Made by a program: the position numbers and the translations under genes. DNA of 64,000 nucleotides from Dictyostelium discoideum (taxonomy: Eukaryota): contig CM000152.2 of NCBI GenBank assembly GCA_000004695.1, positions 1,120,001-1,184,000 of the forward strand, written 5' to 3'. This document shows positions 11,152 through 18,995 of this stretch, in pieces. Under the pieces are notes generated by a model. The model did not search any database. It was given only the letters and a program-made list of their open reading frames with translations, and was not told where the DNA came from. The first letter of the stretch is position 1. The number at the start of each line of letters is the position of its first letter.

Positions 11152-11501
11152 ATGCATGAAAATGGACTCCTAAATAATAATATCAACAATAATTTTTTTT
11201 TTCCAACACACTTCACAAACGCAAAAAAAGATTATAATCCCCTCAAATTTTACGAAAACATTCAAAGTAATATTAATGAGGAGAATATAGCTTTTGATAC
11301 ATATACTACAAAAATGGATCAATTAGCTCACTTAAAAATTTCATCATCTGGTGGTGGAGATGATGAAATAAATAAAAACAACAATAATAAACAAAAACCA
11401 ACCACCACCACCACCACAACTACAACAACTACTACCACTTCATCAACACCAAAAACAACACCATCCAGAGATAATAATAGAAATAATAATAGAAATAATA
11501 G

Positions 11502-11542
<41 letters not shown>

Positions 11543-11639
11543 CTAATAATAGAAACAACAACAACAACAACAACAACAACACTAATAATAATAATAATAA
11601 TAACAATAATAATAATAATAATAAATTTAATAATAATAG

Positions 11640-11711
<72 letters not shown>

Positions 11712-14700
11712 TAGATTTAATAATAATAACAATAATAATAGATTTAATAATAATAGAGTTAATATTGAAGAATGGAAAAATGATAAAGTAATAGAATGGT
11801 TAGAAAAGAATGAATTTAATCAATATGTTGAAAAGTTTAAAGAAGAACAAATTGATGGTAATACACTAATAGAATTTAGTTCAATGAATCAAAGTGATAA
11901 AATATTTGAAAGACTTGGTTTCATTCATATAGGTCCAAAAATTAATTTTCAAAGAAAATTAAAAGAATTGGTTTTATCTTCACAACCACAAAAACAACAA
12001 CAACGTCAATCAAATAATAATCAAAATAATAATAATCAAAATAATAAACATATTGTTGATTATAGTGATGCAATTCATCATATTAATAATAAACAAGATA
12101 AAGATAATAAAAAGAAATCAGAATTTGAACCATTTAAAACTGCTCATGAAATGGAGAATTATTTAAAAAAGAAAATCGTTCAAGCAGATTCTGATGAAGA
12201 TATTGTTGAATTATTAAATCATCAAATTATTAATCTTAAAGATATCATTGGTAGAGATTTCTTACAATTCTCTGTACAAGATTTACTGGTGAGAATTTAT
12301 ACACATGAAAAATTTCAAGGTGGAATTTTGGAACAGTTTTTCAATAAATTAATTTTCGAATTAATATCATCTAAATTCTTTTCATCAATTTATAACTTTC
12401 CACAGTACATTCAAGAGATTGGTAGTTTGCCACAATTTAAAGCATCGATTGATTTAATGGATTTGGTCTCCTCTAAATTCAATGATAGTATTACAATTTT
12501 ACCAGTTGAATTGTTTGAAATTAGATTCAATGAATTGAATGCTGACACCAATCAAAGTAGACTATCCAATCAAACACTTAAAACAGTTGAACATATTAAA
12601 GGTTTAATTAAAGTTTTAAAACAAAAGAAACAATTATCAAAACTTAATACAATTCAACAATTAACACAACCAATTTTCAATATTGATGAAATTAGTTATA
12701 AGAATTTACCAATAGCACCAACTCGTGATGAAATTCATTCAAAGGTATTACCAAAATTAAAACCACTTAAAATTGGTACCTATTCATCATCTGAAGAATA
12801 TATTGATACACAATTTAATCTATTAAGAGAAGATATGATTCATCCGATTAGAGAAGCTTTAACACTTATTCAAAATGGTTCTTCATCACCTTATTATTAT
12901 ACTGATGTAATTTTTAAAGGTAAAATATAATTATATATTTAATTAAATGATTATACTTTTAAATAAATATATTAATTTTTTTTTTTTTTATATATTTTTA
13001 TAATAGGATTTACAAAAACTCAAACATCATTAAGTTTTTTAATTGAATTTAAATATAGAAGTAAAATTAAATGGGAGAAATTTTCAAAATTATTAAATGG
13101 ATCATTGTTAGTATTATCATGTGATAATTTTACAAATATTTTAGTTGCAACCGTTGAAAAAAGACCAGATAGAGGTGAAGAAAAACAAATTTCAATTTCA
13201 TTTTATGGTGATAATCAAGAGAATCAAATGGATTTAATGTATTTATTTGAAAATTCATTCTCAATGATTGAATCACCAACTTATTTCGAATCTGTAAAGA
13301 ATGTATTATCATCATTACAAAGAATTAATTCCGATGATTTACCATTTCAATCATATCTTTTGAAATGTTCAGGTCAAGAGATTATTCCAAAGTATTTCCA
13401 AGATCATCCAGTTATTAATTTACAAACTACATTTGATAATACTGAACGTATCAATATTAGAACATCGGAATTTCCAGAGAGATTGGGTACATTGGATCCA
13501 AGTCAAATCGAAGCATTTGAACATTGTTTGAAATCAGAGTTATCTTTAGTTCAAGGTCCACCAGGTACTGGTAAATCTTATATTGGTGTGAAATTATTCG
13601 AAGTGATTCATAGACATTTAAAAGAGAATTCAGCAAAGAATGCTCCAATATTGGTTTTATGTTATACCAACCATGCCTTGGATCAATTTTTGGATCATAT
13701 CATTACAAACGTTACAAAGAAAGTAATTAGAGTCGGTTCAAGATCTCGTGATGAAAGAATGAAAGATTATAATATTCGTAATTTCATTCGTGCTGAAAAA
13801 AGACAGTTTGAATACTATAGACAAAGAGATGATGTAGTTGCAATACTTAAAGAGTATTTAGATACTTTTTCAAATGAATTATCATATGAAGATTTTTTAA
13901 AATTTGCTGGAAATGATTATAATAAAGGTCAAGATGATGATGATGGCGATGATGATGATGATGATGATGATGACAATGGTGGTGATATAAAATGCTCAAA
14001 TATGAATTTTAATAGATGGGGTCAATGGATAAAATCAATAAAGAAAAAGATTAAAGAAGATTTAACTTTATTAAAAGTACCGAAATCATTAAAACCTTCA
14101 ATTAATGAAATTGAAAATGAAGATGACGAAGATGATGAAGATTTAGTTGAAACCTTATTAAATGAAAGAAGATTTGATTATGGTAATATTTCAGGTGGTA
14201 GTGGTATTACTGCTCATGATATTTCAGAATATGATATTCAAAGTATTGTTACAATGACAAGATTAGAGAAAAGAGATTATAAAGATATTCAAGACATTTT
14301 CGATATTAAAGAAAATGATAGAATTTATTATTATCGTTATCTTTTAAATAAAAAGATTAGACATTCATTGAAAACCATTCAAGATTATGCAAAGCAATAT
14401 AAAGAGCTATCTGATACAATCTTGGATTATGAAAATAAAGCCTACATTAGAGCATTATCATCAGTTAATGTTGTTGCTGCTACAATTACAGGTGCATCTC
14501 GTTTGAAGAGAGTTTTCGATTCAATCAATTCAAAATGTGTAATCATTGAAGAGGCAGCTGAAGTATTGGAAGGTCATATAGTTTCAGTATTACCAAAAAC
14601 TATTGAGCATTTAGTATTGATAGGTGATCATGAACAATTGAAACCATCATGTGCAGTCTATCAATTGGCAGAGAAATTCCAATTGAATGTTTCATTATTT

Positions 14701-16623
14701 GAAAGAATCATGAAGAATGGTGGTGCACATAGACAATTATCAATTCAACGTCGTATGGTACCAAATATTTCACAATTCATTCATCCAATCTATCCAAATC
14801 TTAGAAATCATCCAGAGGTTTTAATAAGATTCGCAACTGAATCAACCATTAAAGGTATTCAAAAGAATATCTTTTTCTTGGAACATACAATACCAGAATC
14901 ATCACCAACTGAATCAACTAGTAAATCAAATCTTTTCGAAGCTGATTATGTGGTTGGTTTAGCTGATTATCTATTGAAACAAGAATATAAACCAACTGAT
15001 ATTGTCATATTGACACCATACACTGGTCAACTATTAAAGATTAAAAATCAAATTAGAAATAGAAAACATGAACTACTCTCAAAAGTACAAGTACGTACAG
15101 TGGATCAATATCAAGGTGAAGAATGTAATATAGTCATATTAAGTTTAGTTCGTTCAAATGAACGTGGTGATAGTGGTTTCGTTAAAATTAAGAATCGTAT
15201 CAATGTTGCCATTTCTCGTGCTAGAAATGCAATGTATTTGGTTGGTAATAGTGATCTATTGAGAAAAGCAAATCCAATTTGGGAAAATATGTTTAAAATT
15301 CTATCTGAACCATCCGTTAATGCCATTGGTCCAATCTTAAAGCTTAGATGTGAAAATCATAAAGATCAAATCACAAATATCACCTCTGGAAAAGATTTTG
15401 CAAATGTACCACAAGGTGGTTGTCTTTTAAATTGTTCAACTCGTTTGGAATGTGGTCATCAATGTGGTTTAGCTTGTCATATCTTTGATCAAGATCATAT
15501 CAACATTAAATGTACAAAACCATGTGAACACATTCATCAAAAGTGTGGTCATACATGTAAGAAAACCTGTTCCGATGATTGTGGTCTATGTGAAGTATTG
15601 GTTGATCGTGATCTCCCATGTGGTCATAAAAAGAAATTGGCTTGTAACATTGATCCACTTCAATATAAATGTCAAGAACCATGTCAAAAACAAAGAAGAT
15701 GTGGTCATAAATGTGAACTCAAATGTTCAGAATATTGTGAAAAGAATAATTGTAAAGAGAAAGTTGAAAAAAAACTTCAATGTGGTCATATCGAAACAAA
15801 AGAATGTTATAACAATAGTAACGTTTGTAATGCCAAATGCAAAGATATCTTACCATGTGGTGATCCTTGCTCTCAAAAATGCAAAGATCATAAAACAGCT
15901 CAATTTGGAATTCGTAGTCATCCACCTTGCTCAAAGAAAGAATGTACAAGAGAATTGTTCTGTGGTCATAGATGTAATAGTCAACATGCATGTAGTTCAG
16001 GTTCTTGTGGTGATTGTAAAAAGAAATGTCTAAATGCTTGCACTCATTCAGTTTGTAATACAGGTTGTTCAAAACTTTGTAACCCATGTAGAGAGAAATG
16101 TAAACGTGGTTGTATTCATGTTGGTAAATGTAAAAACCTTTGTAAAGAACAATGTTCCATCAAGAATTGTGATCAAAGATGTACAAAAAAATTACCATGC
16201 AAACATCAATGTATTGGTTTATGTGGTGAAAAATGTGTTTCAATTTGTAGAATATGTAATCCAGATTATTTAGAACCAATCACTCGTATGAAGTTAAGTG
16301 AATTCGATGAAAATGATTGTTTCATTGAACTTCATAAAGGCCATGTCTTCCTCGTTGACAACTTGGATACCTTTATGAATATTAAAGATGAAAGTGGTAA
16401 GATAGTTCATAAAAAGTGTCCATCATGTAATATGATCATCTCTGCTAAAGATGCTCCAAGATATAAAGATATCATTAACAAAACTTGGAATCAAATAGAT
16501 TCAATTAAAAGAAAATTAATGGAACGTGTAACAAAAGAAGAAACTGATATGGTTGTAAAAGCAATGGGTGGTGCTGCTGGGTATGTTTTTTTCTACTTTA
16601 TTAATTATAATAATAATAATAAT

Positions 16624-16698
<75 letters not shown>

Positions 16699-16948
16699 TA
16701 ATAATAAATAATATATATACTAATTTAAATTTTTAATTATTATTAGACATTGGTTCGTTTGTGAAAATAAACATACATATTATATTGGTGAATGTGGAGG
16801 AGCAATGCAAATAGGAAACTGTATTGAGTGTAAAGCTAAAGTTGGAGGCACCAATCATTCACTATTACCAAATAATAAACATTCTGACATTGATGGTTCA
16901 AATAATCCTTTGTATAGACCATTCATTCAACCACCAGAATTTGATTAG
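11152..16948 (+). CDS. ZNFX1-like protein, 3 exons: join(11152..12919,13007..16580,16747..16948), 1847 aa. It carries poly-N/T, a SAM domain, a UPF1-like SF1 helicase, NF-X1-type zinc fingers and a C-terminal RZ-type zinc finger.
   Basis: Exon 1 carries a SAM-like domain: WKNDKVIEWLEKNEFNQYVEKFKEEQIDGNTLIEF. Exon 2 has the Walker A motif VQGPPGTGKSY, motif II IIEEAAEV, GDHEQLKP, TVDQYQGEECNIVILSLVRSN and NVAISRARNAMYLVGN, then at least 10 NF-X1 fingers such as CGHQCGLACH, CGHTCKKTC and CGHKCELKC. Exon 3 encodes HWFVCENKHTYYIGECGGAMQIGNCIECKAKVGG, an RZ finger as in ZNFX1 and RNF213. The introns are 87 nt (GTAAAA...TAATAG, phase 1) and 166 nt (GTATGT...(AAT)n...TTATTAG, phase 2). The total length is divisible by 3. 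Confidence 0.8.
16581..16746 (+). repeat. Intron 2 of the ZNFX1-like gene, made almost entirely of an (AAT)n microsatellite.
   Basis: It has a GTATGT donor at 16581, roughly 90 nt of pure AATAATAAT repeat and a TTATTAG acceptor ending at 16746. It is in frame with the upstream exon until a stop at 16696, so the track reads it as a poly-N tail. Confidence 0.6.
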
Positions 16949-16957
16949 ACTAATTCA

Positions 16958-16993
<36 letters not shown>

Positions 16994-17105
16994 TTATCTC
17001 TTTATTCCTTTTTTTCTCATATTAAATAATAGTTAAAATAATAAACAAAATATAAATAAAAATAAAATAAAATATCTTTTAAAAAAAAAAAAAAAAAAAG
17101 TTAAA

Positions 17106-17804
<699 letters not shown>

Positions 17805-18347: not shown

Positions 18348-18995
18348 TTATTTCTTTTTGTCATCATCATCTTCTTTACTGGTACATATGGATTGTGTTG
18401 TTGAAAGAGCAGCAAACATTACAGCACCACCTAAAAGACCAGTTATGATTGGATTTTCTTTAAAATAATTGATTGTTTTACTTAAAAATCCCTCTTCTTC
18501 TTCTTGATTATTTAATCTTACTGAACGAGAACAACTAACATTATCATCTTCTTCAGAGTTTGAATTAATACTTTTTATTTCCATTCTTCTAACTATTATT
18601 TCATTATTTTGACCATTTGCCTCCAAATTATTATTATTGTAGTTGTTGTTGTTGTTGTAGGCGTTATTGTTATTGTTGTTGGTATTATTGTTGGTATTGC
18701 TGTTGGTATTGTTGTTGTTGCTTTGTCTTAAATCTTGAATTTCTAAAAGTAATTGAGTTACTGTTTGATCATGTGAAACCAAGCCTTTTTTAGAGAAGGA
18801 TGAATAATCTTTTCTACAGTAAGCACAAGTTCTTGATCCTTTTTGAAACCACTCCTCTATACAACTTTTATGAAATTGATGTGAACATAAAGGTAATCTA
18901 TGAGGTAATTTCTCTTTGTCATTTAAATCTGTAACATCAAATGGTGATAAACAGATACAACATGTTAAATCTTGATTTAATTTTTTATTATCCAT
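18348..18995 (-). CDS. RING-H2 zinc-finger protein with a C-terminal hydrophobic anchor, 215 aa; a paralog of the 17106..17804 gene.
   Basis: CCICLSPFDV...LCSHQFHKSCIEEWFQKGSRTCAYCRKDY has the same architecture and residue spacing as its neighbour, with a poly-N linker and the hydrophobic stretch ITGLLGGAVMFAALSTT. Confidence 0.8.
   Translation of the reverse strand: MDNKKLNQDLTCCICLSPFDVTDLNDKEKLPHRLPLCSHQFHKSCIEEWFQKGSRTCAYCRKDYSSFSKKGLVSHDQTVTQLLLEIQDLRQSNNNNTNSNTNNNTNNNNNNAYNNNNNYNNNNLEANGQNNEIIVRRMEIKSINSNSEEDDNVSCSRSVRLNNQEEEEGFLSKTINYFKENPIITGLLGGAVMFAALSTTQSICTSKEDDDDKKK

Follow-up and report, generated by a model that had tools for sequence, protein, structure and literature searches.

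Human ZNFX1 is an RNA-activated helicase that carries two unusual E3 domains, forms polymers and is required for resistance to infection, and the preprint describing its structure traces RZ-bearing ZNFX1 only back to choanoflagellates (bioRxiv 10.1101/2025.10.14.682297). Two members of the same helicase family, Caenorhabditis elegans ZNFX-1 and Schizosaccharomyces pombe Hrr1, act on RNA, in condensates, during silencing that depends on RNA-dependent RNA polymerases (RdRPs) (PMC9276528); the C. elegans protein has no RZ domain (bioRxiv 10.1101/2025.10.14.682297). RNF213 (mysterin) has the RZ finger in common, there as an E3 module ubiquitylating lipopolysaccharide, but is otherwise a dynein-like AAA+ giant with a RING and no superfamily 1 (SF1) helicase. 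Here we describe a ZNFX1-like gene of Dictyostelium discoideum located at positions 11152-16948 (+ strand) of a 64,000-nucleotide stretch (GenBank assembly GCA_000004695.1, contig CM000152.2, positions 1,120,001 to 1,184,000 of the forward strand), hereafter called the window. Three neighbouring open reading frames (ORFs) are exact D. discoideum AX4 proteins (DDB_G0278759, DDB_G0278765 and a CstF-50 homologue), and by gene order the locus is DDB_G0278761. The gene is already annotated ('NF-X1-type zinc finger') and its orthologues are present in NCBI with the same Pfam architecture; it is not a new gene.

Identity of the DDB_G0278761 product

We consider it probable that DDB_G0278761 is a three-exon ZNFX1 orthologue whose product would act as an RNA-activated, self-assembling helicase and ubiquitin ligase in RNA silencing or defence, and not as a DNA-binding NF-X1 factor. 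The 1847-residue protein is arranged as a poly-Asn/Thr tail, a SAM domain, an armadillo (ARM) domain, the 1B barrel, an SF1 helicase with a 1C insertion, a zinc-finger stalk, a Miz-like segment, a helix and the RZ finger. Its features, given with amino-acid (aa) positions and, for AlphaFold models, predicted local distance difference test scores (pLDDT), are the following:

11374-11751, + strand, aa 75-200: low-complexity coding tract, from the translation, Tandem Repeats Finder (TRF) arrays and composition
11758-11982, + strand, aa 203-277: SAM domain, with SAM_1 and SAM_2 above their gathering scores
12121-12648, + strand, aa ~324-499: armadillo-type helical domain, pLDDT 70-91 in the AlphaFold model
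13492-15252, + strand, aa 752-1338: UPF1-like SF1 helicase core, motifs I-VI present
14113-14175, + strand, aa 959-979: acidic segment ENEDDEDDEDLVETLLNERRF within the 1C insertion, which may correspond to the autoinhibitory 'plug' helix of human ZNFX1
15421-16245, + strand, aa 1395-1669: Cys/His-rich NFX1-type stalk, with 55 Cys and 17 His in aa 1395-1700
16246-16443, + strand, aa 1670-1735: Miz-like segment between the stalk and the RZ finger, aligning with fish ZNFX1

The features used to judge membership of the ZNFX1 family were taken from the 2025 preprint on the structure of the human protein (bioRxiv 10.1101/2025.10.14.682297). At the level of sequence, the assignment of the product as a ZNFX1 orthologue is strongly supported, because (i) its best match among solved structures is human ZNFX1 (9q9z_A, E=5.5e-163; the UPF1 structures come next, at E=2e-38), (ii) it carries the ZNFX1 domain PF25396, (iii) it has the ARM domain, (iv) its Walker B motif is of the deviant 'EEAA' type, and (v) the helicase is followed by the Cys/His stalk and the RZ finger. 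The PF25396 match (aa 581-679) scores 64 bits against a cut-off of 27, and those to AAA_11 (aa 752-1137) and AAA_12 (aa 1149-1338) have E-values of 3e-28 and 1.7e-41; the scores of these three families and of ZnF_RZ all lie well over their gathering scores. In a Foldseek search, the ARM model matches 9eve_A ('ARM domain of human ZNFX1') best, with a probability of 1.00 and a TMt of 0.62, and a dictyostelid N-terminal profile aligns with positions 245-474 of the 9q9z_A chain. The preliminary description of the locus, made from the letters of the DNA, had claimed SF1 helicase motifs I to VI, and all of them could be located: GPPGTGKS at 773, the Walker B motif IIEEAAE at 1102, QRRM at 1170, VDQYQGEE at 1288 and NVAISRAR at 1322. 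Columns E1104, E1105, A1106 and A1107 of the Walker B motif are near-invariant in a multiple alignment of the family (A1), in which the helicase motifs are likewise conserved. The deviant 'EEAA', with its catalytic Glu, was defined as a ZNFX1 feature in the structure preprint (bioRxiv 10.1101/2025.10.14.682297).

The order of the ARM domain, 1B (PF25396), SF1 helicase with 1C and EEAA, stalk, putative Miz-like segment and RZ finger is common to the D. discoideum protein and vertebrate ZNFX1 (9q9z, 9eve), with 31-39% identity over the matched parts. The 1C insertion is large (~235 aa). It also contains a (GAT)n array (13933-13973, aa ~898-911) encoding a poly-Asp run that lies apart from the conserved acidic segment (aa 959-979) and is one codon longer in the window than in L001, the transcript contig described below.

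The Cys/His columns of the stalk are near-invariant between D. discoideum and metazoan (fish) ZNFX1, and the alignment with 9q9z_A spans the first fingers. At least ten NF-X1 fingers had been proposed. This number stands with a relaxed Cys/His pattern, which yields ~12 fingers (14-15 in fish ZNFX1), but not with the strict published consensus, which fits only 3 (4 in fish). A Pfam search of the translated exons, also proposed earlier, recovered SAM, AAA_11/AAA_12 and the RZ finger but not zf-NF-X1 (PF01422), which gave no match to the isolated Cys-rich region even at E<=10. Neither an annotated perch ZNFX1 nor the orthologue of Heterostelium has a PF01422 match, and because even perch ZNFX1 has none, the missing match is uninformative.

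The terminal RZ finger of the earlier description is borne out by a ZnF_RZ match (PF20173) at aa 1773-1825 (67.2 bits, E=1e-18) and by the conservation of six functional residues: the zinc ligands C1786, H1790, C1806 and C1809 and the catalytic pair C1797 and H1818 have the same spacing as in fish, and are spaced as C1849, H1853, C1860, C1869, C1872 and H1881 of the human protein, the six residues needed there for zinc binding and catalysis (bioRxiv 10.1101/2025.10.14.682297). The RZ region of RNF213 is matched at E=2e-4. The helix that precedes the RZ core, 'EETDMVVKAM', aligns with 'EERKMIVSAM' of fish; in the human enzyme it is a predicted ubiquitin-binding helix (bioRxiv 10.1101/2025.10.14.682297).

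The existing annotation makes another proposal, i.e., that the product is an NF-X1-type sequence-specific transcription factor whose fingers bind DNA and regulate cup-cell genes. Proteins of the NFX1/Shuttle craft/FAP1 architecture have, besides their NFX1 fingers, a PHD/RING-type finger at the N-terminus and an R3H domain at the C-terminus, and contain no helicase. Two dictyostelid surveys have classed the gene in this way: DDB_G0278761 is listed as a cell-type-enriched 'NF-X1-type zinc finger' transcription factor with a 10.6-fold cup enrichment (94, 4 and 14 transcripts per million in cup, stalk and spore cells, respectively; Kin et al. 2018, PMC6198379 Table 2), and 'NF-X1_ZnF' is counted as a dictyostelid transcription-factor family through InterPro IPR000967 (Forbes et al. 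2019, PMC6873476). The cup-enriched expression would fit such a regulator. However, the survey assignment is based on a domain keyword alone, and the architecture is that of ZNFX1 and not of NFX1: an SF1 helicase, PF25396, the ARM domain and the RZ finger are present, whereas Pfam detects neither an R3H nor a PHD domain. Moreover, the NFX1 fingers of human ZNFX1 build a rigid structural stalk that makes protein-protein contacts (bioRxiv 10.1101/2025.10.14.682297). Because of this architecture and of the structural role of the stalk, a role as a sequence-specific DNA-binding transcription factor is unlikely, and as an account of this gene we give it very little credence; the classification of DDB_G0278761 among transcription factors is probably a misassignment.

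The SAM domain of dictyostelid ZNFX1 proteins

Compared with vertebrate ZNFX1, the D. discoideum protein has in addition a SAM domain and an Asn/Thr-rich tail, residues 1-202 being 49% Asn and 11% Thr. The SAM domain claimed in the preliminary description is recognised by Pfam above the cut-offs, both in the full protein (SAM_1 at aa 207-271, 26.4 bits for a cut-off of 23; SAM_2, 23.5 bits for a cut-off of 20.5) and in the isolated segment (32.2 and 29.2 bits, respectively). A profile built from four dictyostelid sequences matches solved SAM domains, the best being that of Liprin-beta (E=4e-13), with further matches to Neurabin, Shank, DGK-delta, SARM1, CNK, Polyhomeotic and tankyrase. Neither Smaug nor Vts1, which represent the RNA-binding type of SAM domain, is among the 60 solved chains listed as matches of this profile. 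The best matches are SAM domains of protein-interaction types, which is no more than suggestive of self-association. The profile also matches the SAM domains of SARM1/TIR-1, SAMHD1, tankyrase and DGK-delta with E-values of 1e-5 to 1e-9. These are oligomerising SAM domains fused to immune or signalling enzymes and follow a similar logic of a SAM domain combined with an effector enzyme; oligomerisation of the amoeba protein is predicted. Because the ARM dimerisation domain is retained, the SAM domain is an addition to it and not a replacement.

The SAM domain is found in the orthologues of D. discoideum, Tieghemostelium, Cavenderia and Heterostelium, and also in partial proteins of Polysphondylium violaceum; the combination of SAM with ZNFX1 is present in all four dictyostelid taxon groups. 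The orthologues of Tieghemostelium lacteum (P0002), Cavenderia fasciculata (P0004) and Heterostelium album (EFA77791 = P0064) are 42-46% identical to the D. discoideum protein and share its Pfam architecture of SAM, ZNFX1, helicase and RZ domains. To define the wider distribution, 1.84 billion representatives were scanned exhaustively by HMMER with the exon 2 product, and the best 150 matches were screened with our own SAM, Miz and RZ hidden Markov models. Among these 150, the RZ finger was detected in 74, the Miz-like segment in 69 and the SAM domain in 2, both of them dictyostelid. The lineage-specific nature of the SAM domain suggested earlier therefore agrees with these counts (five dictyostelid taxa with SAM, none of the 148 other closest representatives), and on this count the SAM domain is a dictyostelid-specific addition to ZNFX1. 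Profile searches with the two ends of the protein gave less: the N-terminal profile yielded just two proteins, both partial and from P. violaceum, and failed to recover the orthologues of the query, probably because of low-complexity words, and the C-terminal profile, which included fish rows, returned mostly fish and metazoan fragments and shed no light on the non-animal distribution.

The literature search found no fusion of a SAM domain to a ZNFX1-type helicase; judged by title and abstract, the papers naming both ZNFX1 and 'sterile alpha motif' are apparently unrelated immunology or omics studies.

Several dictyostelid proteins vary on this arrangement. The JGI protein P0003 and the two P. 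violaceum proteins P0061 and P0062 have an extra CCCH finger (PF00642/PF18345) between the SAM and ARM domains, which the D. discoideum, Tieghemostelium, Cavenderia and Heterostelium proteins do not have. CCCH is an RNA-binding type of finger. Unlike D. discoideum, H. album has a second gene copy in tandem: scaffold GL290991.1 bears two SAM-ZNFX1-RZ genes on the same strand (L004, 1-2579 and 3001-8362). P0061 and P0062 are two different partial SAM and CCCH proteins. The SAM-ZNFX1 family thus appears to be expanded in some dictyostelids but not, within this window, in D. discoideum, and a tblastn search of the window with the protein found no paralogue or fragment elsewhere in it.

Gene model and splicing

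The exons and introns of the gene are the following:

11152-12919, + strand: exon 1, aa 1-589 plus 1 nt; poly-Thr/poly-Asn N-terminus, SAM domain, ARM-like domain and start of the ZNFX1 (1B) domain
12920-13006, + strand: intron 1, 87 nt, phase 1, GTAAAA...ATAG, 4.6% GC; removed in L001
13007-16580, + strand: exon 2, aa 590-1780; 1B domain, SF1 helicase with its large 1C insertion, zinc-finger stalk and, in its C-terminal part, the Miz-like segment followed by the helix preceding the RZ core
16581-16746, + strand: intron 2, 166 nt, phase 2, GTATGT...TTAG, 3.6% GC; removed in L001 and P0001
16747-16948, + strand: exon 3, aa 1781-1847 plus the stop codon; RZ core HWFVC...GGTNH and C-terminal tail

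Joining 11152-12919, 13007-16580 and 16747-16948 yields 5544 nt, i.e., 1847 codons with a sole, terminal stop. The start codon of exon 1 is the first ATG downstream of an intergenic stretch with 8-15% GC, and the ORF from there is unbroken; the coding parts of the region have 25-34% GC. Both introns have canonical ends (GT at 12920 and AG at 13005-13006; GTATGT at 16581 and AG at 16745-16746).

The two junctions of the three-exon model in the preliminary description are reproduced exactly in a public transcript contig. The Logan contig L001 (run SRR24091727, 4561 nt) aligns with 12138-12919, 13007-16580 and 16747-16933, so that both introns are precisely spliced out and the two junctions that the earlier work had wished to see bridged by RNA, 12919/13007 and 16580/16747, are joined. 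Exon 2 is covered end to end, at 99.8% identity, and exon 3 is covered to 16933. The protein P0001 (1226 aa, 100% identical, from the Logan assembly of SRR24091727) is continuous through '...AMGGAAG' and 'HWFVCENK...', the residues on either side of the second junction; its cluster at 90% identity consists of the Logan sequence alone. The domains agree with the splicing, since the Pfam ZNFX1 domain match is unbroken over junction 1 and the RZ match over the junction of exons 2 and 3. In addition, the position and phase of intron 1 (after '..FK', phase 1) are common to the C. fasciculata and H. album orthologues.

In the list of ORFs the gene is split, as had been remarked, into two separate ORFs of the same strand (11152..12930, 592 aa, and 13105..16698, 1197 aa), and the RZ exon is missed except for a 47-aa fragment (16805..16948) that holds part of an RZ-like motif. 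The 1847-aa model has no exact match in the protein collection, and neither the AX4 protein of the locus nor those of other recently annotated D. discoideum strains appeared among the exact or homology matches, although the neighbours were found. The possibility that the gene is a pseudogene or an assembly artefact was considered and rejected in view of the intact ORF, the splicing, the conservation over Dictyostelia and the intact functional residues. Genomic A tracts lie downstream of the stop codon, a 30-nt run at 16959-16988 that begins 11 nt past it and an A19 run at 17081-17099; they could give rise to internal oligo-dT priming artefacts in 3'-end mapping.

Intron 2 had been described as nearly pure (AAT)n. 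TRF defines in it a (TAA)n array at 16602-16713 (36.7 copies, 92% match), which makes up 112 of the 166 nt, only 67% of the intron. It had also been called in frame. This is correct in that the frame of exon 2 enters the repeat as poly-Asn, but the length of the intron is not a multiple of 3. Read through, the intron does give the false poly-Asn tail predicted, 38 more codons ending at a stop at 16696-16698. When the orthologous proteins were mapped onto their loci, those of T. lacteum, C. fasciculata and H. album had no intron before the RZ core; a (TAA)n-rich intron within the RZ domain is thus found in D. discoideum alone of these four. Its removal yields 'AMGGAAGHW', with zero residues gained or lost relative to P0003. 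Because the three orthologues are intronless at this place and because removal restores the orthologous sequence, intron 2 appears to be a clean intron unique to the D. discoideum lineage, or else one lost three times elsewhere. An origin of the intron as an 'intronised' coding poly-Asn tract was considered and rejected: removal restores the orthologous sequence exactly, and retention runs into a stop codon.

These data bear on a further proposal, in which the RZ exon would normally be unused: intron 2 would be retained to give a poly-Asn-tailed, Miz-only product of 1819 aa resembling C. elegans ZNFX-1 or, in an alternative form, the gene would be decaying in some strains. The intron can indeed be read through for 38 codons and is lineage-specific, its splicing is backed by a single transcript contig, and the same contig carries a frameshifting deletion near junction 1. 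However, this sole transcript is spliced exactly at GT..AG and restores the RZ sequence 'AMGGAAG/HWF' with no residue change relative to the orthologues, and the reference ORF is intact for 1847 codons in an AT-rich genome. Furthermore, all six functional residues of the RZ finger are intact in D. discoideum, which points to purifying selection on exon 3. We regard a normally unused RZ exon, in either form, as improbable, and retain the three-exon gene with a complete RZ finger.

Evidence against the proposed activity, and candidate roles

Several observations weigh against the view of this protein as a self-assembling helicase and ubiquitin ligase encoded by three exons. As regards the transcript, the sole contig, L001, carries a frame-breaking 1-nt deletion and starts at 12138, leaving the SAM-coding part uncovered. 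Because the SAM part is missed by L001, the linkage of SAM and helicase is given only by the continuity of the exon 1 ORF and by the architecture of the orthologues. The deletion lies 3 bases past junction 1, where L001 (784-785) reads GATTAC and the window GATTTAC (13009-13011, TT versus TTT); the shifted frame would end the exon 1 reading 8 codons later. Since the deletion breaks the frame, the gene caller split the contig. L001 differs further in a poly-Asp run shorter by one codon and in a single A>G change (Lys>Glu), so it comes from another strain or bears errors; for the deletion there are two explanations, an error of assembly or a polymorphism between strains by which the protein would be split. 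The frame of the window, not that of L001, agrees with the orthologues ('FKGFTKTQTSLSF' versus 'FKGFYKTSTSIGF').

As regards the domains, the AlphaFold model of the SAM region, made from a four-sequence alignment, shows five short helices (residues 9-74), where a SAM fold is a five-helix bundle, but at a pLDDT of 33-57 it is too uncertain to strengthen the sequence evidence. The acidic segment ENEDDEDDEDLVETLLNERRF pairs with the acidic block of fish ZNFX1 in the multiple alignment A1 only, and when 1C is aligned locally with the human chain, the alignment does not extend to it. The Miz-like segment keeps F1695 and CPxC relative to the vertebrate Miz-like region, but its support is sequence alignment only: the model is of low confidence (pLDDT 55-61) and has no significant fold match, its top fold matches being RING/U-box E3 domains alone, all at E>0.3. 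At aa 1700-1703, the 'xCxH' of fish and of the other dictyostelids (TCGH, GCDH, DCNH, DCGH) gives way to 'HKGH' in D. discoideum, a change that replaces the Cys of one putative zinc ligand and for which the upstream His possibly compensates. The residue following CPxC, identified here as the 'linchpin' by where it stands in the motif and not by an alignment with the human protein, is Asn in D. discoideum, Gln, Lys or Asn in the other dictyostelids, Arg in fish and Gln in human. Finally, ~180 alignment columns between the Miz-like segment and the RZ finger are filled in fish and gapped in all four dictyostelid sequences. Because dictyostelids lack this segment, the bi-catalytic geometry may differ from that of vertebrate ZNFX1; we nevertheless treat such a loss as variation inside the family, since C. 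elegans ZNFX-1, a recognised orthologue, lacks even the RZ domain.

The mechanism that we propose follows the human protein, for which RNA-activated helicase activity, E3 transfer and assemblies have been described (bioRxiv 10.1101/2025.10.14.682297). By analogy, single-stranded RNA in the helicase groove would stimulate ATP hydrolysis and 5'-3' translocation, and the Miz-like module would recruit a UBCH5-type E2, from which ubiquitin would pass to the RZ cysteine C1797 or straight to the substrate. ARM dimers, formed through a conserved dimer contact, would nucleate higher-order assemblies, and the dictyostelid SAM domain and Asn-rich tail may provide an additional interface for self-association. 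The likely task of such a protein in the cell would be to sequester and mark RNA that is aberrant, foreign or derived from transposons, as part of small-RNA silencing or of cell-autonomous defence. A role in RNA surveillance or defence, like oligomerisation through SAM, is what we infer from homology.

Of the two settings, the first would make the protein an RdRP cofactor in small-RNA amplification and transposon silencing. It would act in the manner of S. pombe Hrr1 in the RNA-directed RNA polymerase complex (RDRC) or of C. elegans ZNFX-1 and keep its target transcripts available as templates within condensates. D. discoideum possesses RdRPs, Dicer-like proteins and Argonautes, and a SAM domain together with an Asn-rich tail would fit the formation of condensates. 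ZNFX-1 and Hrr1 are described as RdRP-linked orthologues that concentrate targeted RNAs in condensates (PMC9276528), and the 1C insertion of human ZNFX1 is closest to that of Hrr1 (bioRxiv 10.1101/2025.10.14.682297). However, the fungal relatives listed (~1100 aa, with PF25396 and helicase domains) have no RZ finger among their listed domains, whereas the dictyostelid protein retains both the helicase and a metazoan-type E3 end, and enrichment in the cup cells of terminal fruiting bodies is no obvious setting for RNA interference (RNAi). We therefore hold a cofactor role of this kind to be possible but rather doubtful.

The second setting is cell-autonomous immunity as in vertebrate ZNFX1 and RNF213, in which the protein would detect foreign RNA or intracellular pathogens and assemble ubiquitin coats or signalling platforms. 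Dictyostelium is a professional phagocyte that faces intracellular bacteria, a lifestyle in which such a function would have its place. The catalytic residues of the RZ finger are all kept, together with the putative Miz-like segment, unlike in the RZ-less C. elegans ZNFX-1. The E3 activity of human ZNFX1 is needed against infection, and RZ domains ubiquitylate non-protein substrates (bioRxiv 10.1101/2025.10.14.682297). Against this, the literature search gave no infection-response data for DDB_G0278761, and the host has no interferon system: because amoebae are without an interferon or MAVS pathway, downstream signalling would have to differ. A defence role is likewise only a tentative proposal; the small-RNA and defence roles are about equally likely.

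The presence in Amoebozoa of a full-length orthologue whose RZ catalytic residues are all intact indicates that RZ-bearing ZNFX1 predates the animal-amoeba split. One may go further and speculate, without holding it to be likely, that the helicase with its Miz-like and RZ E3 modules was already complete in the animal-amoeba ancestor, earlier than the choanoflagellate origin given in the preprint, and that the later fusion to a polymerising SAM domain in Dictyostelia made of it a self-assembling, RNA-triggered ubiquitin-coating machine, used by a phagocytic amoeba for cell-autonomous defence or for the silencing of transposon and viral RNA. If this were true, D. discoideum would offer a haploid and tractable system in which to study the ubiquitylation of non-protein substrates by RZ fingers. 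The SAM domain, added in all sampled social amoebae to a protein whose counterpart in animals functions through self-assembly, is a natural experiment on the wiring of polymerisation. The rival roles are directly testable in a haploid host that is easily knocked out and has RNAi, retrotransposons and infection models, and the transcription-factor count of dictyostelid regulatory surveys is worth correcting. The ancient age of ZNFX1-family helicases will not surprise specialists, and the sequences are public and auto-annotated. Our literature search found no paper connecting ZNFX1 with Dictyostelium; new with respect to the searchable literature are the recognition in Amoebozoa of a complete orthologue of ZNFX1 whose RZ catalytic residues are intact, the SAM fusion throughout dictyostelids, the loss of the linker between the Miz-like segment and the RZ finger, the repeat-rich intron specific to D. 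discoideum, and the probable misclassification of the gene among transcription factors.

Scans of the window for tRNAs and Rfam families gave no matches. Directly downstream of the ZNFX1-like gene lie two genes on the - strand (17106-17804 and 18348-18995). Their products are small RING-type paralogues, 43% identical over 77 aa (E=2e-19), each with a hydrophobic segment at its C-terminus. The first gene and the ZNFX1-like gene converge, only 157 nt separating the two stop codons, and the exact ORF of the first has no match in the protein collection, where the deposited model may differ; the second is DDB_G0278765.

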